Shown here one piece after another: positions 4,404 to 11,331 of a DNA stretch of 21,220 nt. The stretch lies in the IMG/VR virus record IMGVR_UViG_2547132274_000016, positions 1 to 21,220 of that record; one strand, written 5' to 3'. Position 1 is the first letter of the stretch; each line of letters opens with the position of its first letter. Made by a program: the position numbers and the translations under genes. This DNA is from a virus. Lineage: Duplodnaviria > Heunggongvirae > Uroviricota > Caudoviricetes. Under the pieces are notes generated by a model. The model saw nothing but the letters and a program-made list of their open reading frames with translations. It searched no databases and was not told where the DNA came from.

Positions 4404-4675
4404 GTATTCGTATCGAAATTGGCGAACGTTATGTCGTTACCAGTGACAGCTTTCAGTTTATTCTCCACGAGAAAAAGAGAGCGGAAAGCGGTAAAAACGC
4501 CGGCCAGGAATGGCTGGCGGTGGTTGGTTATTACCCGAAATTAAGCCAGCTCGTTTCCGGCATGATGCATCACGATATTCTGACCGGAAGCGCAAAATCT
4601 TTTGCTGATTTAAACGCGCAGGTTGAGCAACTCAGCAAGCGTTGTTCAGAGGCTTTTGGCTCACATGGCCGTTAA
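4400..4675 (+). CDS. Small early hypothetical protein immediately upstream of A
   Basis: 91-aa ORF, 4-nt start overlap with previous gene, 3' end overlaps the A start. Confidence 0.5.
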   Translation: MSIRIEIGERYVVTSDSFQFILHEKKRAESGKNAGQEWLAVVGYYPKLSQLVSGMMHHDILTGSAKSFADLNAQVEQLSKRCSEAFGSHGR

Positions 4676-6950
4676 AGCCTCCGGGCGTTTTGTCCCTCCG
4701 TCAGCATTTGCCGCAGGCACCGGTAAGGCGTTTACCGGTGCTTATGCATGGAACGCGCCACGCGAGGCTGTCGGGCGCGAAAGACCCCTTACACGTGACG
4801 AGATGCGTCAGGTGCAAGGTGTTTTATCCACGATTAACCGCCTGCCTTACTTTTTGCGCTCGCTGTTTACTTCACGCTATGACTACATCCGGCGCAATAA
4901 AAGCCCGGTGCACGGGTTTTATTTCCTCACATCCACTTTTCAGCGTCGTTTATGGCCGCGCATTGAGCGTGTGAATCAGCGCCATGAAATGAACACCGAC
5001 GCGTCGTTGCTGTTTCTGGCAGAGCGTGACCACTATGCGCGCCTGCCGGGAATGAATGACAAGGAGCTGAAAAAGTTTGCTGCCCATATCTCATCGCAGC
5101 TTTTCATGATGTATGAGGAACTCTGCGATGCCTGGGTGGATGCGCATGGCGAAAAAGAATCGCTGTTTACGGATGAGGCGCAGGCACATCTGTATGGTCA
5201 TGTTGCTGGCGCTGCACGTGCTTTCAATATTTCCCCGCTTTACTGGAAAAAATACCGTAAAGGGCAGATGACCACGAGGCAGGCATATTCTGCCATTGCC
5301 CGCCTGTTTAACGATGAGTGGTGGACTCATCAGCTTAAAGGCCAGCGTATGCGCTGGCATGAGGCGTTACTGATTGCTGTCGGGGAGGTCAATAAAGACC
5401 GTTCTCCTTATGCCAGTAAACATGCCATTCGTGATGTGCGTGCGCGCCGCCAGGCAAATCTGGAATTTCTTAAATCGTGTGACCTTGAAAACAAGGAAAC
5501 CGGCGAGCGCATCGACCTTATCAGTAAGGTGATGGGCAGTATTTCTAATCCAGAAATTCGCCGGATGGAGCTGATGAACACCATCGCCGGTATTGAGCGT
5601 TACGCCGCCGCAGAGGGTGATGTGGGGATGTTTATCACGCTGACCGCGCCGTCAAAGTATCACCCGACACGTCAGGTCAGAAAAGGCGAAAGTAAAACCG
5701 TCCAGCTAAATCACGGCTGGAACGATGAGGCATTTAATCCAAAGGATGCGCAGCGTTATCTCTGCCGTATCTGGAGCCTGATGCGCACGGCATTCAAGGA
5801 TAATGATTTACAGGCCTACGGTTTGCGAGTCGTCGAGCCACACCACGACGGAACGCCGCACTGGCATATGATGCTTTTTTGTAATCCACGCCAGCGTAAC
5901 CAGATTATTGAAATCATGCGTCGCTATGCGCTCAAAGAGGATGGCGACGAAAGAGGAGCCGCGCGAAACCGTTTTCAGGCAAAACACCTTAACCGGGGCG
6001 GTGCTGCGGGATATATCGCGAAATACATCTCAAAAAACATCGACGGCTATGCACTGGATGGTCAGCTCGATAACGATACCGGCAGACCGCTGAAAGATAC
6101 TGCGGCGGCTGTTACCGCATGGGCGTCAACGTGGCGCATTCCGCAATTTAAAACGGTTGGTCTGCCGACAATGGGGGCTTACCGTGAACTACGCAAATTG
6201 CCTCGCGGCGTCAGCATTGCTGATGAGTTTGACGAGCGCGTCGAGGCTGCACGCGCCGCTGCAGACAGTGGTGATTTTGCGTTGTATATCAGCGCGCAGG
6301 GCGGGGCAAATGTCCCGCGCGATTGTCAGACTGTCAGGGTCGCCCGTAGCCCGTCGGATGACGTTAACGAGTACGAGGAAGAAGTCGAGAGAGTGGTCGG
6401 CATTTACGCGCCGCATCTCGGCGCGCGTCATATTCATATCACCAGAACGACGGACTGGCGCATTGTTCCGAAAGTGCCGGTCGTTGAGCCTTTGACTTTA
6501 AAAAGCGGCATCGCCGCGCCTCGGAGTCCTGTCAATAACTGTGGAAAGCTCACCGGTGGTGATACTTCGTTACCGGCTCCCACACCTTCTGAGCACGCCG
6601 CAGCAGTACTTAATCTGGTTGATGACGGTGTTATCGAATGGAATGACCAGGAGGTCGTGAAGGCGCTAAGGGGCGCATTAAAACACGGGCTGAGAACGCC
6701 AAATCGTCAGCAAAGAAACGGAAGCCCGTTAAAACCGCATGAAATTGCACCATCGGCCAGACTGACACGGTCGGAACGAATGCAAATTACCCGTATTCGC
6801 GTTGACCTCGCTCAGAACGGTATCAGGCCGCAGCGATGGGAGCTTGAGGCGCTGGCGCGTGGCGCGACCGTAAATTATGACGGGAAAAAATTCACGTATC
6901 CGGTCGCTGATGAGTGGCCGGGATTCTCAACAGTAATGGAGTGGACATGA
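4665..6950 (+). CDS. A: Replication initiation endonuclease A (rolling-circle nickase, P2 gpA-like)
   Basis: 761 aa from MAVKASGRF (track ORF starts 14 codons earlier); contains the HxH metal motif region ...EPHHDGTPHWHMMLF...; length equals P2 A. Confidence 0.9.
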   Translation: MAVKASGRFVPPSAFAAGTGKAFTGAYAWNAPREAVGRERPLTRDEMRQVQGVLSTINRLPYFLRSLFTSRYDYIRRNKSPVHGFYFLTSTFQRRLWPRIERVNQRHEMNTDASLLFLAERDHYARLPGMNDKELKKFAAHISSQLFMMYEELCDAWVDAHGEKESLFTDEAQAHLYGHVAGAARAFNISPLYWKKYRKGQMTTRQAYSAIARLFNDEWWTHQLKGQRMRWHEALLIAVGEVNKDRSPYASKHAIRDVRARRQANLEFLKSCDLENKETGERIDLISKVMGSISNPEIRRMELMNTIAGIERYAAAEGDVGMFITLTAPSKYHPTRQVRKGESKTVQLNHGWNDEAFNPKDAQRYLCRIWSLMRTAFKDNDLQAYGLRVVEPHHDGTPHWHMMLFCNPRQRNQIIEIMRRYALKEDGDERGAARNRFQAKHLNRGGAAGYIAKYISKNIDGYALDGQLDNDTGRPLKDTAAAVTAWASTWRIPQFKTVGLPTMGAYRELRKLPRGVSIADEFDERVEAARAAADSGDFALYISAQGGANVPRDCQTVRVARSPSDDVNEYEEEVERVVGIYAPHLGARHIHITRTTDWRIVPKVPVVEPLTLKSGIAAPRSPVNNCGKLTGGDTSLPAPTPSEHAAAVLNLVDDGVIEWNDQEVVKALRGALKHGLRTPNRQQRNGSPLKPHEIAPSARLTRSERMQITRIRVDLAQNGIRPQRWELEALARGATVNYDGKKFTYPVADEWPGFSTVMEWT

Positions 6951-7402
6951 TGGCAAAAATTCACGAGGTAAAGCTGCACGCAAAATATTTCGACCTTGTG
7001 CTGGAAGGAAAGAAACGCGCAGAGTTTCGGAAAAATGACCGTAATTATGAGCGCGGGGACACGTTGATTTTGCATGAATGGGTGCAGGGTGTGTACACGG
7101 GGCGAAAGGTTGAAGCCCGGATAACAGATGTTACTGACCTGTCAGACTGGCTGGAAGATTATGTATTGCTAAGTATTGAGCTGCTTAATACAGGCACATA
7201 TGAGATTGTGAACTGGAAAGAACTTAGTGAGCGTGGTCTGGTATTCAGAATTAATCATGAAATTATGCATCAGCTCGGCCTTGCTGTTATGTATGAACCA
7301 GAGACGGGGATGTCTGGCGGGGCAATGGTTGCCATGGATGGAGCATGGAACTATTCAGATGAACAGATGGAGCGTGCACAGCAAAACGGGTGGCTTGGAT
7401 AA
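6947..7402 (+). CDS. DUF3850/ASCH-like (PUA-fold) domain protein, cargo gene 1
   Basis: Start ATG overlaps the A stop (ATGA); N-terminal ~70 aa (KIHEVKLHAKYFDLVLEGKKRAEFRKNDRNYERGDTLILHEW) resembles ASCH/DUF3850 domains; assignment from motif memory only. Confidence 0.55.
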   Translation: MMAKIHEVKLHAKYFDLVLEGKKRAEFRKNDRNYERGDTLILHEWVQGVYTGRKVEARITDVTDLSDWLEDYVLLSIELLNTGTYEIVNWKELSERGLVFRINHEIMHQLGLAVMYEPETGMSGGAMVAMDGAWNYSDEQMERAQQNGWLG

Positions 7403-7608
7403 TGCACAGAATACCAGGCGAGATACCGCACCATAAAACTAAAAATATCAAGCTGATGGCTATTGTTCAGCGTTTACAGCGGATTATGGTCAACGAAAAT
7501 CTGACGCCAGATGAGCTAGTCGGGTGTGCCGAAATAGTCCGGGATAATTACGGGCGGTTTAACCATATCGGTCAATCAAGAGTTACGCCACCACCACGCA
7601 GACGATAG
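7402..7608 (+). CDS. Small hypothetical protein, cargo gene 2
   Basis: 68-aa ORF whose ATG overlaps the upstream TAA (TAATG); basic C-terminus (PPPRRR); no recognisable domain. Confidence 0.4.
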   Translation: MHRIPGEIPHHKTKNIKLMAIVQRLQRIMVNENLTPDELVGCAEIVRDNYGRFNHIGQSRVTPPPRRR

Positions 7609-7837
7609 AGAACGCCGCCAGTCGTGAAACTTGTTTTCAGGGCTGGCGGGGTTGAACAACGAGCGAAGCGAGGCGTTAGTTGACAGTCATATTTTTACTG
7701 CGTTGGTGCTGGTTTTTGACGGTTGAAAGGAGTTAGCTCGGAGAGCTAAAGCTAACAACTTACAAATATTCAAAAGTAAGCTTCCTGTTGCTAACATAAG
7801 GTCGATTTTTTATGTGGATGATGCAAAAAGGATAGCT

Positions 7838-8569
7838 ATGGATATTGTAATCGCTTTTCTATCACTCGCTTTTTTCGTTGCTTTTTTCATCGGGTTAATC
7901 AAGCCATCACTGGTGCGGATGCCAAACCGTAAACGTGCAAGTGCGGTTTATCTCGGAGGTGGTTTTGCATTGAGCATAATTGGTTCAATACTCTACCCAA
8001 CAGAAAAAAGCCAGCCAGTTGCTAAAACTGAAACAGCAACCGTAGCAGAACACCAGGCTCAAAAAACATTCGAATATACTGAAAAAACACTCAAGGAATA
8101 TCGGAACGAGCCAAAGAAGACTCGACACGATATTGTGAATAGTTACATTAACTTTAAGAAAGTGCCAGTCACCGCATCAGATGCATTTTATGCCTGCATG
8201 AGTGAGTATACATTTACCAAAGATGATGAGTTGAAACTCGGTGATGTTCTTGGGTGGTGCTTTAATGATTATGAAAATGACCCGAATTCACTAAACAATA
8301 AAATCAATCTTGATACATTTCAGAGCAATTTTAGTGGTTGGGATGGTTCTTATCGTCCATTGGAAAAACTAATTAAAGATAATATGAACGATGATTCATC
8401 TTATAAACATGTGTCAACGGTATATCATTTGGTTTTGAATAAAGACCCGCACGCCATTGTGAAAACCACATTTCGTGGCACTAATGCTTATGGAGGAGTA
8501 GTTAAACAGACTATTGCTGCGCGTGTCGACATCCGAACGGGCGAAGTCGTTTCAGTATTAGATAACTAA
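7838..8569 (+). CDS. Membrane-anchored hypothetical protein (two N-terminal TM helices plus ~175-aa soluble domain), cargo gene 3
   Basis: AAGGA RBS 5 nt before the ATG at 7838 (track ORF from GTG 7814); hydrophobic stretches IVIAFLSLAFFVAFFIGLI and AVYLGGGFALSIIGSIL; AT-rich codon usage unlike the phage backbone. Confidence 0.6.
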   Translation: MDIVIAFLSLAFFVAFFIGLIKPSLVRMPNRKRASAVYLGGGFALSIIGSILYPTEKSQPVAKTETATVAEHQAQKTFEYTEKTLKEYRNEPKKTRHDIVNSYINFKKVPVTASDAFYACMSEYTFTKDDELKLGDVLGWCFNDYENDPNSLNNKINLDTFQSNFSGWDGSYRPLEKLIKDNMNDDSSYKHVSTVYHLVLNKDPHAIVKTTFRGTNAYGGVVKQTIAARVDIRTGEVVSVLDN

Positions 8570-8572
8570 TCG

Positions 8573-8634
8573 TTGATGCCGTATTGACACTTGTTATACT
8601 AGTGGTGGAACGAGACTGTAATAGTCTGTTCCAC
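8573..8634 (+). promoter_or_regulatory. Candidate sigma70 promoter (TTGATG-16 bp-TGtTATACT) followed by a 30-bp imperfect palindrome (operator or 5'-UTR hairpin)
   Basis: -35-like TTGATG 8573..8578, extended -10 TGTTATACT 8592..8600; palindrome GTGGAACgagACTgtaatAGTctgTTCCAC 8605..8634 directly downstream; GAGGGA RBS at 8673. Confidence 0.35.
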
Positions 8635-8681
8635 TACAGGAGTAATTACCTTGACTGTAAGTTGCTTTTATTGAGGGAACT

Positions 8682-9971
8682 ATGAAGTTTAAGACTGAAT
8701 TGAGTCGAAAATTGCATGACTCGGTAGTGTTTGATTTGAAAAAAGACCTGGTAAAATTAGAGGGAAACCTAAAAAATACAGATTTGTTGTTGTCGTTTCA
8801 GTTCAAAATAATAAGGAATATAATTAGAAGTGAAAGGATGATCAAAGAATTAAAGTCTTTCTTAGGGGAACTAAAGGCAACAAAAAGAAAAGGTGGTTTA
8901 AAAAAAGAACAATCTAAACTTATTAAGGAAAATATTAAGAGTGTTGAGCAGGGTATTGATGATGTGAAATTTAAAATATATATCTTCAAAATGTTTGGTG
9001 ATAGTGTTGCTTTTTTGTATTTGGATAAGTTTGATATTAAGCATTTTTTTTATAATGTTGTGGATTACAGTCCCAAGGAGTCAGCGGGCTATATGGGAGG
9101 GAAGGATGGCTTAAAAGAAGAATGGGAATTGGTGAAGAAGGCCTGCAAGGCTGGTGTTCCTACGTTACTCAATGATATTACAATGAGTATGAGGCATGGT
9201 GATGTTTGTTTACTTGGTGAAGGTGCACCAGTACTGGTGGAGGTGAAATCAAGTCAAAATAAAAATGATCGTGTTGAACGTCAAAAAAATAACCTTAATA
9301 GACTAGCTGAATTTTTAGCAGAAGATAAAGCTGAAGATTTTAGAGGGATGCCATTAGTGTTAAGGAAAGAACTGTGTTTTTCAGAAGTTACATATAAAAA
9401 AGAATTTAATGAGCATCTGAATGTATGCAGGAAAAAAGGAATTTCATGGGTAAGGCTAGAAGATGGATTTTATGTGGTATCTAATCGTGGCTGTGATCTG
9501 GAAATAGCATTATCACAGTTGGATCTTAGAGGGAGGAAAATTGCACCTATATTTTTGAATGAATATAAAAATAATCAATTGTGGGTTCCTTTAACTCCGT
9601 TTGTTAATCTTATAAATGATGCGCGTGATTTGTGTGACTTTATAAATGGGGAGTTAACTATTCTCTGTGTTCTTGATTTGGATTGTTTTAAACAAATAGC
9701 TTTGAATGAAGGGTTTGAGCTTGTTTTTGTCGATGGTGAAGACTATTCGATGATATTTAAAGAATTTGGTAGCTCATTGATTTGGGGTGTGTCATGGCAA
9801 ATGATGCTTCGCACTCCTTTAGAAATGGTGTCAATGTCTTGGTTAATTAAAGATTCAATTGATAGATTTAAGCGTTTACAAAAGCAACATGCTGAGATGC
9901 AGCCTGTCACTGATGTTAATACATCCGAAACCTCCTTGTTTGAAAAATATAGGCCTCTTTTTACAAAGTAG
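8682..9971 (+). CDS. Hypothetical protein with PD-(D/E)xK-like nuclease motif, cargo gene 4
   Basis: 429 aa, strong RBS; K/E-rich N-terminal region, then GD(174)-x12-VLVE(187)VK(189) resembling the PD-(D/E)xK catalytic core; no P-loop; very AT-rich. Confidence 0.6.
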   Translation: MKFKTELSRKLHDSVVFDLKKDLVKLEGNLKNTDLLLSFQFKIIRNIIRSERMIKELKSFLGELKATKRKGGLKKEQSKLIKENIKSVEQGIDDVKFKIYIFKMFGDSVAFLYLDKFDIKHFFYNVVDYSPKESAGYMGGKDGLKEEWELVKKACKAGVPTLLNDITMSMRHGDVCLLGEGAPVLVEVKSSQNKNDRVERQKNNLNRLAEFLAEDKAEDFRGMPLVLRKELCFSEVTYKKEFNEHLNVCRKKGISWVRLEDGFYVVSNRGCDLEIALSQLDLRGRKIAPIFLNEYKNNQLWVPLTPFVNLINDARDLCDFINGELTILCVLDLDCFKQIALNEGFELVFVDGEDYSMIFKEFGSSLIWGVSWQMMLRTPLEMVSMSWLIKDSIDRFKRLQKQHAEMQPVTDVNTSETSLFEKYRPLFTK

Positions 9972-10108
9972 TCAGATGCTGTAGGTGTATATGCTATTGC
10001 ATTAATTTGCATGCAAAACAAGTAGAGGTAAAAACTCTTACAGGCTGCTTGGGGGATAGCTTTTGAATGCTAATGCATTTGCATTCAAATTGCCCCACGA
10101 AGCGGGCG

Positions 10109-10127
10109 GGCGAGGCGGGGAAAGCAC
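10109..10127. other. Candidate cos cohesive-end sequence (GGCGAGGCGGGGAAAGCAC)
   Basis: GC-rich non-coding stretch between cargo and Q, where cos lies in a P2 prophage; 19-mer matches my recollection of the P2 cohesive end (to be verified). Confidence 0.5.
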
Positions 10128-10269
10128 TGCGCGCTGGCGGTGGTGCTGATTTTATTTTTTCAGCGTCTGAGCGCGTCGTGGCAGCGTTTAGTCTGCCCGT
10201 TGGGGTGTTGGTGTGTCTGCGGGGTATTTTGTGCGGTGGTGAGCGTGTGAGGGCGTGATGACGGGATGT

Positions 10270-10296: not shown

Positions 10297-11331
10297 TCAG
10301 CCGTTGTCAGTGTCCAGTGAGTAGTTTTTAAAGCGGATGACCTCCTGACCGAGCCAGCCGTTTATTTCCCGAATCCTGTCCTGTAACGGGATAAGCTCAT
10401 TGCGGACAAAGACCTTTGCCACTTTCTCAATATCGCCCAGTGACCCGACGTTCTCCGGCTTGCCGCCCATCAACTGAAAGGGGATGCGGTGCGCGTCCAG
10501 CAGGTCTGCGGCGCTGGCTTTTTTGATATTAAAAAAATCATCCTTCGTTGCCACTTCACTGAGCGGGATAATTTTAATGCCGTCGGCTTTCCCCTGTGGG
10601 GCATAGAGAAACAGATTTTTAAAGTTATTGCGGCCTTTCGACTTCACCATGTTTTCGCGGAGCATTTCGATATCGTTGCGATCCTGCACGGCATCGGTGA
10701 CGTACATGATGTATCCGGCATGTGCGCCGTTTTCGTAATACTTGCGGCGGAACAGCGTGGCTGATTCATTCAGCCAGGCAGAGTTAAGGGCGCTGAGATA
10801 TTCCGGCAGGCCGTACAGCTCCTGATTAATATCCGGCTCCAGCAGGTGAAACACGGAACCGGGCGCGAAGGCTGTCGGCTCGTTGAAGGACGGCACCCAC
10901 CAGTAAACATCCTCTTCCACACCACGGCGGGTATATTTTGCCGGTGAGATTTCCAGTCTGATGACCTTACCGGTGGTGCTGTAACGCTTTTCCAGAAACG
11001 CATTACCGAACACCAGAAAATCCAGCACAAAGCGGCTGAAATCCTACTGGGAAAGCCACGGATGCGGGATAAATGTCGAGGCCAGAATATTACGTTTGAC
11101 GTAAATCGGTGAGCTGTGATGTACGGCAGCACGCAGGCTTTTTGCCAGACCGGTAAAGCTGATCGGTGGCTCATACCATCTGCCGTTACTGATGCACTCG
11201 ACGTAATCCAGAATGTCACGGCGGTCGAGTACCGGCACCGGCTCACCAAAGGTGAATGCCTCCATTTTCGGGGCGCTGGCGGTCATTTTTTTTGCCGCAG
11301 GTTGCGGTGTTTTCCCTTTTTTCTTGCTCAT
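10297..11331 (-). pseudogene. Q: Portal protein gpQ interrupted by one in-frame TAG codon at 11044..11046
   Basis: Two ORFs (11044..11331, 95 aa; 10297..11028, 243 aa) are in the same frame and separated only by TAG; together ~344 codons as in P2 Q; reading through gives ...PWLSQ*DFSRFVLDFLVF... Confidence 0.6.

Follow-up and report, generated by a model that had tools for sequence, protein, structure and literature searches.

The P2-type orthologue of orf97 of coliphage 186 in the gpA-gpQ hotspot of a P2-like prophage

Results

The locus and its setting

We analysed a window of 21,220 nucleotides (the whole stretch of DNA under study), which is a P2-like (Peduovirus) prophage; the same DNA is present on contig AEJZ01000094.1 of Escherichia sp. 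TW14182. The gene of interest, hereafter the target, is a 243-codon frame at 7838-8569 and lies among the following genes and elements:

left part of the window: int, C and cox
4623-6950: replication gene A (gpA)
6914-7402, + strand: DUF3850/ASCH gene, the counterpart of orf91
7390-7608: 72-aa ORF, PHROG 11386
8682-9971, + strand: 429-aa ORF
10111-10129, + strand: cos, GGCGAGGCGGGGAAAGCAC, 19 nt, an exact match to the P2 cohesive-end sequence (cosR of NC_001895)
10297-11331, - strand: portal gene Q, with terminase gene P and the late genes beyond

The order gene A, target, cos and Q places the target in the cos-proximal gpA-gpQ hotspot, the slot that holds tin and old in P2 and that has been described there as a reservoir of anti-phage genes (Rousset et al. 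2022, PMC9122126). The G+C content drops from ~0.53 in the prophage backbone to 0.34-0.37 over positions 8000-10000, as expected of acquired cargo.

On the right-hand side, cos at 10111-10129 forms the boundary of the hotspot cargo, and it is overlapped by a 63-aa ORF (10067-10258) that is probably not a gene. Codon 96 of the portal gene Q is an in-frame stop (...PHPWLSQ*DFSRF...), and the gene is split there into ORFs of 95 and 243 aa; since the portal is intact (344 aa) on a near-identical contig (L084), either this copy of the prophage may be defective or a sequencing error may have produced the stop. On the left-hand side, the product of 6914-7402, whose gene overlaps the end of gene A, is a 162-aa fusion of DUF3850/ASCH with DUF7415, longer than the 110-aa Orf91 of P2. 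The 72-aa ORF that follows it is a constant companion of the P2-type clade of the target described below, and lies downstream of orf97 in one 186-type locus (L009).

The target is a conserved gene

The target and the parts of its product map as follows, all on the + strand:

7827-7832: Shine-Dalgarno-like AAAGGA, read from the sequence, 5 nt before the ATG
7838-8569: coding sequence of a 243-aa Orf97-family protein, from the ATG at 7838 to the stop codon at 8567-8569, which is included
7844-7900: transmembrane (TM) helix 1, residues 3-21; hydropathy 2.95; AF2 helix at 2-21
7901-7936: basic inter-TM loop, within KPSLVRMPNRKRASA; residues 22-36 hold five K/R and no acidic residue; predicted cytoplasmic
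7937-7993: TM helix 2, residues 34-52; hydropathy 1.68; AF2 helix at 31-52
7994-8068: variable, disordered linker, residues 53-77 (25 aa); low pLDDT, indels, relaxed selection
8069-8326: helical half of the predicted periplasmic domain, residues 78-163; invariant C120 and C141 on neighbouring helices
8327-8566: alpha+beta half of that domain, residues 164-243; a helix and a four-stranded antiparallel sheet

We preferred the ATG at 7838 to an upstream GTG at 7814 as the start codon because AAAGGA precedes it; the longer ORF from the GTG was not supported, as the relatives start at the ATG and almost all of them are 243 aa long. We found 161 homologues across Enterobacterales, nearly all of 239-245 aa, and pairwise dN/dS values against 186 and other relatives of 0.05-0.17, with the minimum in the C-terminal domain (omega ≤0.13) and the maximum in the linker (0.17-0.76). 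The target is under strong purifying selection and, given these homologues and ratios, is a real gene rather than a chance ORF. It occurs in 272 of 5,426 complete E. coli genomes (megablast), and the exact protein of the window is encoded on at least 1,000 contigs; the family is common, yet it is annotated as 'hypothetical' everywhere and is absent from Pfam and PADLOC.

The scan for sigma-70 promoters in the 230-nt spacer upstream of the target returned no convincing site, and the search for a LexA box over 7400-7838 gave no match. We therefore rejected LexA/SOS control for the window copy, since the box is absent near the gene.

The protein matches Orf97 of coliphage 186

The first-pass annotation had treated the target as an unknown gene, and this did not hold up. 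Its product aligns over the full length and without gaps with Orf97 of coliphage 186 (NP_052294.1; 190 of 243 residues identical, 78%; E 4e-152), and its match to PHROG 3403 likewise spans every residue (1-243 of 243, E 1e-145). The same annotation had described a polar domain with no recognisable motif, which was right for Pfam, NCBIfam and PADLOC, where scans of the target gave no match (PADLOC-DB v2: zero families at E ≤1), and wrong for PHROG. A tblastn search of phage genomes returned 33 records, coliphage 186 (orf97) among them, and the close matches all belong to P2-like phages of Escherichia, Yersinia, Salmonella, Erwinia and Klebsiella. We conclude, from the alignments, that the target is the P2-type orthologue of coliphage 186 orf97. 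It is thus not a new system, since orf97 has already been named and catalogued and has a phenotype on record, and the finding is the re-identification of a catalogued family rather than a discovery.

The RefSeq record of 186 (NC_001317) notes for orf97 that 'expression from plasmid blocks 186 infection'. It describes orf97 as the second gene of the LexA-repressed p95 'SOS operon', after tum, with a partial terminator, t95a, before orf97 and a terminator, t95b, after it. The two proteins are alike in their two TM helices followed by a C-terminal domain, in their length of ~243 aa and in the slot of their genes between gpA and Q near cos; the window copy lies, as is typical of the Orf97 family, between gene A and Q of a P2-like phage. 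In 186, however, orf97 is the second gene of the LexA-controlled tum-orf97 operon, whereas the window copy has neither tum nor a LexA box. Note that the position in a tum-orf97 operon is a trait of the 186 subclade and not of the protein family. The primary paper on orf97 is reportedly that of Brumby and colleagues in Virology in 1996, and our literature search found no later functional work on the gene. Homologues of tum-orf97 have been recognised in the Salmonella prophage BTP5 (Owen et al. 2017, PMC5322425).

A near-identical protein is also listed by Rousset et al. (2022, Table S5B) as 'System #12', with one protein, no Pfam domain, 210 occurrences in the P2 hotspot and the remark '2 TM', and the downstream 429-aa protein is listed there as a separate single-gene 'System #138' with 16 occurrences. 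Neither sequence is among the tested constructs of that study (Table S2). Identity with the '2TM' component of the validated AC1 system ('2TM + 1TM + TIR') was considered and rejected, as the signature peptides of the target occur only in Table S5B, under system #12.

Two membrane helices and a domain that most likely faces the periplasm

The annotation had two hydrophobic helices at the N terminus of the frame, and both the hydropathy profile (Kyte-Doolittle, 19-residue windows) and an AF2 model built with a 40-sequence alignment agree with it; beyond the two TM peaks, no hydropathy window exceeds 1.2. It had further proposed a soluble C-terminal domain of ~175 aa. A folded domain does exist, but it comprises 166 aa (residues 78-243, pLDDT >90), preceded by a stretch of low confidence (pLDDT <50 at residues 56-74) within a linker that is poorly conserved and carries indels among homologues. 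When re-modelled alone, the domain retained a mean pLDDT of 90.3. Residues G19, L20, P23, V26, M28 and R31, in and around the inter-TM loop, are invariant among 40 homologues.

Read as cytoplasmic, the 'soluble' domain would be misplaced: the C-terminal domain most likely faces the periplasm. Several lines of evidence led us to this view. The inter-TM loop is basic and free of acidic residues and so, by the positive-inside rule, would lie in the cytoplasm, which would leave the C-terminal domain on the periplasmic side. Among 1.84 billion representative sequences, a profile search identified 2,963 related clusters, and in the best 148 of these the domain follows two TM helices, a cytoplasmic Zn ribbon plus one TM helix, a signal anchor or a lipoprotein signal peptide; to judge by these N termini, it would be extracytoplasmic in every one of those arrangements. 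C120 and C141 are invariant, and in the AF2 model each is seven residues away from the turn that joins helices 111-127 and 134-147, a geometry that would suit a disulfide. Lastly, the best fold matches of the helical half are all periplasmic proteins (HdeA, HdeB, YmgD, Rap1a and Tai4), and those of the second lobe are of cystatin, latexin, PepSY and VirB8 type.

These HdeA-, Tai4- and cystatin-type likenesses are weak and hold at the fold level only, and they are no evidence of family membership: Foldseek returned nothing from the PDB at E ≤0.001, and the PDB sequences, when searched with a profile, contained no meaningful match (E 1.6). The identity to HdeA/HdeB/YmgD and Tai4/Rap1a is 3-18%, with no Pfam match to those families, and the target differs from those proteins in its tether to the inner membrane and in a second lobe, of alpha+beta type, with which the helical one is fused. 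The HdeA/HdeB acid-stress chaperones form a Pfam family of free, soluble periplasmic proteins, and we rejected membership of the target in it. Both lobes resemble small binder or inhibitor folds, which would suit a protein-binding role. The C-terminal module of ~80 aa also occurs alone, at 40-55% identity, in many bacterial phyla.

Clades, positions and relatives outside the hotspot

The target occupies the left edge of the gpA-gpQ hotspot in P2-like prophages. Among its IMG/VR relatives, Q lies downstream in 77 of 80 loci and gpA upstream in 74 of 80, and the GTDB loci are arranged alike. These 80 IMG/VR loci fall into two clades: a 186-type clade (59 loci, 77-82% identity), which always has tum upstream, and a P2-type clade (21 loci, 92-100% identity), which has the DUF3850 gene and the 72-aa ORF upstream and never tum. 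Across loci, more than 15 unrelated gene families occur in the interval from the target to Q. In ~13 IMG/VR loci, this gap spans only ~490-510 nt or contains only short G+C-rich ORFs beside cos, and in two loci (L006 and L008) no gene but the homologue separates tum from Q. Full-length copies in Enterobacterales are, almost without exception, found in P2-like prophages, in the defence hotspot. A tblastn search also identified an Orf97 homologue in Vibrio phage VHML, where it is ORF47.

Two relatives have other surroundings. In Xenorhabdus innexi, a 48%-identical homologue (L018, 7001-7732) is part of a P2-type tail cluster, where a tail-fibre gene lies on one side of it and gpD, sheath and tube genes lie on the other; neither gpA nor a portal gene is present within 7 kb. 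The cluster may encode a tailocin (xenorhabdicin-like), which suggests the idea of a role in self-immunity to contractile tails. On the chromosome of Enterobacter asburiae, a 52%-identical homologue lies outside any prophage (L015, 6174-7732), in a two-gene islet between glnH and dps-rhtA-ompX-opgE, and its neighbour there encodes a bPH_3/SHOCT membrane protein. In a distant family member of 385 aa (P0143), a bPH_3 domain is fused N-terminally to the same domain, and this hints that bPH proteins are functionally linked to the Orf97-type periplasmic domain.

The target and the downstream 429-aa gene are independent

We next weighed the proposal of a two-gene abortive-infection (Abi) or defence system, in which the target would act as membrane effector or sensor together with the 429-aa protein encoded at 8682-9971. 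The two genes are indeed adjacent, on the same strand and 112 nt apart, and the 429-aa gene, found in 17 of the 5,426 complete E. coli genomes (megablast), adjoins the target in all 17. The reverse does not hold, however: the target occurs without the 429-aa gene in 255 of its 272 E. coli genomes and in 78 of 80 IMG/VR loci. Members of the 429-aa family likewise occur without an Orf97 homologue (L086-L090): in a Citrobacter P2-like prophage, the family member alone fills the interval from gpA to Q; in a Pluralibacter P4-like remnant, it lies beside psu and int; and in V. cholerae, it adjoins a serine recombinase. When E. coli P2-like phages are compared, their sequence identity ends exactly at the 3' end of the target and differing genes follow. 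The 429-aa gene is preceded, in the 112-nt spacer, by a promoter-like site (TTGATG-16-TATACT, with an extended TG; 8573-8600, +) and, directly after it, a near-perfect 16-bp hairpin (8601-8637, z = -4.7), which suggests that this gene may be transcribed separately and with a structured 5' leader. As noted above, Rousset et al. also catalogue #12 and #138 as separate single-gene systems.

Because each gene occurs without the other, they do not form a two-gene system, and we consider such a system very improbable; the target and the 429-aa gene are independent single-gene cassettes that are neighbours by chance. The link that the first-pass annotation had drawn between an Abi effector or sensor and the downstream gene is contradicted by these distributions, in both directions.

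A probable stand-alone superinfection-exclusion factor

We propose that the target protein is probably a stand-alone superinfection-exclusion factor of the inner membrane, whose periplasmic domain would counter P2/186-like phages within the envelope, at adsorption or shortly afterwards; we hold this reading with moderate confidence. In such a model, a two-TM hairpin with a short basic cytoplasmic loop would serve as the anchor, and a flexible linker would present the 166-aa two-lobed domain in the periplasm. There, the domain would bind either a component of the incoming P2/186-like tail or a host envelope factor that those phages need, so that infection would be stopped at or just after adsorption and the genome kept out of the cytoplasm. 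In 186, the protein would be switched on together with prophage induction. The gene itself is an accessory gene of the stand-alone kind (a 'moron'), placed at the hotspot's left edge.

We favour exclusion because of the recorded phenotype of the orthologue (the block of 186 infection on plasmid expression is a database record for 186 orf97 and not for the window copy), the predicted periplasmic orientation, and the fact that the family goes strictly with P2-like phages of the contractile-tail type, ORF47 of Vibrio phage VHML and the copy in the Xenorhabdus P2-type tail cluster included. From these we infer that it acts at the DNA-entry step. The stand-alone status follows from the loci where the homologue is the sole gene between tum and Q, the ~13 IMG/VR loci with a similarly empty interval, the more than 15 cargo families found elsewhere, and the single-protein listing by Rousset et al. 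The first-pass annotation had itself guessed at superinfection exclusion, and this was reasonable, for it agrees with the phenotype on record for the 78%-identical 186 Orf97; taken as a whole, its interpretation is partly supported.

The recorded 'blocks infection' would fit exclusion and abortive infection alike. We therefore considered a single-protein Abi mechanism, in which the periplasmic domain senses a phage tail and the two-TM hairpin depolarises or permeabilises the inner membrane so that the cell dies, small membrane proteins being common Abi effectors (PMC9122126). Most of the conserved sequence of the target, however, lies outside the cytoplasm, the two-helix hairpin has no obvious oligomerisation or pore motif, and none of the PADLOC models matched. 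Moreover, the 186 gene is on during prophage induction, as part of the SOS operon, and suicide of the cell would then hurt the phage itself. We regard this mechanism as quite unlikely.

Alternatively, the protein might serve envelope physiology or stress resistance, as a membrane-tethered HdeA-like chaperone or binder that helps the lysogen, and the block of 186 would then be a side effect of over-expression. Such a role would be consistent with the HdeA-like fold, with the Enterobacter copy that lies on the chromosome between glnH and dps, with the occurrence of relatives in a wide range of phyla and with the strong purifying selection. On the contrary, the full-length form in Enterobacterales nearly always sits in the defence hotspot of P2-like prophages, an anti-phage phenotype is on record for the orthologue, and the identity to HdeA is 6%, with only ~66 residues aligned. 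A chaperone role seems to us unlikely on balance.

A narrower version of exclusion is that the protein resembles T4 Spackle in its action and inhibits, in the periplasm, a cell-wall-degrading or other enzyme of the infecting tail. Both lobes resemble inhibitor folds, as Tai4 and Rap1a act against peptidoglycan amidases and cystatin, latexin and PepSY against peptidases, and there is a precedent in Spackle, a periplasmic exclusion protein that inhibits the gp5 lysozyme (PMC7677548). We assign this sub-case a slim chance.

Returning to exclusion in general, the principle would be shared with T4 Imm and Spackle, P22 SieA, HK97 gp15 and T5 Llp, namely that a phage-encoded envelope protein stops a later phage at entry (PMC7677548, PMC10883804). 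A functional analogy is possible; however, the architecture of these proteins is unlike the two TM helices and two-lobed 166-aa domain of the target, and our PHROG scan for homology to annotated exclusion families returned families of unknown function only. Closer in position are Tin and Old of P2, which occupy the same slot and are non-essential prophage genes with an anti-phage phenotype, as we propose for the target, but which lie on the opposite strand in P2. Tin had no evident hydrophobic anchor. The first-pass annotation had correctly pointed to Tin in the equivalent gpA-gpQ position and to the need to exclude homology with it; the comparison was run, and homology to Tin (NP_046797.1) was excluded (BLASTP best E 1.3 over 14 residues; hhalign probability 0.05%).

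We also entertain, tentatively and as an unlikely extension, the idea that the Orf97 periplasmic domain would be the first characterised representative of a large and as yet unnamed superfamily of extracytoplasmic domains. In P2-like prophages and in the Xenorhabdus tail cluster, the domain would serve as a dedicated immunity factor that keeps contractile tails, those of P2-like phages or tailocins, from penetrating: once at the inner membrane, the tail tube or tape measure would be capped or misdirected by it. The superfamily comprises ~3,000 clusters at 50% identity with no Pfam model, and its C-terminal 80-aa module ranges from Enterobacterales to Planctomycetota and CPR bacteria.

Through the link to 186 Orf97, this family, which sits in the best-studied defence hotspot of P2-like prophages, acquires a topology model and a function that can be tested, the exclusion of P2/186-like phages. 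We know of no well-described envelope-level exclusion factor for contractile-tail temperate phages, and the mechanism proposed here would add one. It would also bear on the question, raised as the 'Kronos' idea (PMC13622650), of why progeny phages neither go to waste on sister lysogens nor kill them.

Further observations on neighbouring elements

The 429-aa ORF, which has a G+C content of 0.34-0.37, belongs to PHROG 14906 and to a small family of 25 clusters, and searches of Pfam, PADLOC and the PDB with it gave no match. By eye, it contains a PD-(D/E)xK-like motif, GDVCLLGEGAPVLVEVKSS, at residues ~173-191, and it has a weak match to the sce7726 family (E 0.086); it is a plausible candidate for a single-gene, nuclease-type defence gene.

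Upstream of the target, a hairpin element of ~70 nt lies at 7611-7680 (+), with the sequence GCCGCCAG...CTGGCGGGGTTGAACAACGAGC...GAGGCGTTAG. An 86-nt stretch with this element folds at -35 kcal/mol (z = -4.1), and an Rfam scan of the whole window, hairpin element included, returned no RNA family. The element is common to P2, W-phi and Yersinia P2-like phages at 95-99%, and the same hairpin is found in phage 186 (locus L082, 4690-4755). It lies upstream of the orf97 homologue here and downstream of orf97 in 186, and the two clades therefore differ in the side of this landmark on which the gene is found. The hairpin may be an early-operon terminator or a recombination boundary of the hotspot.
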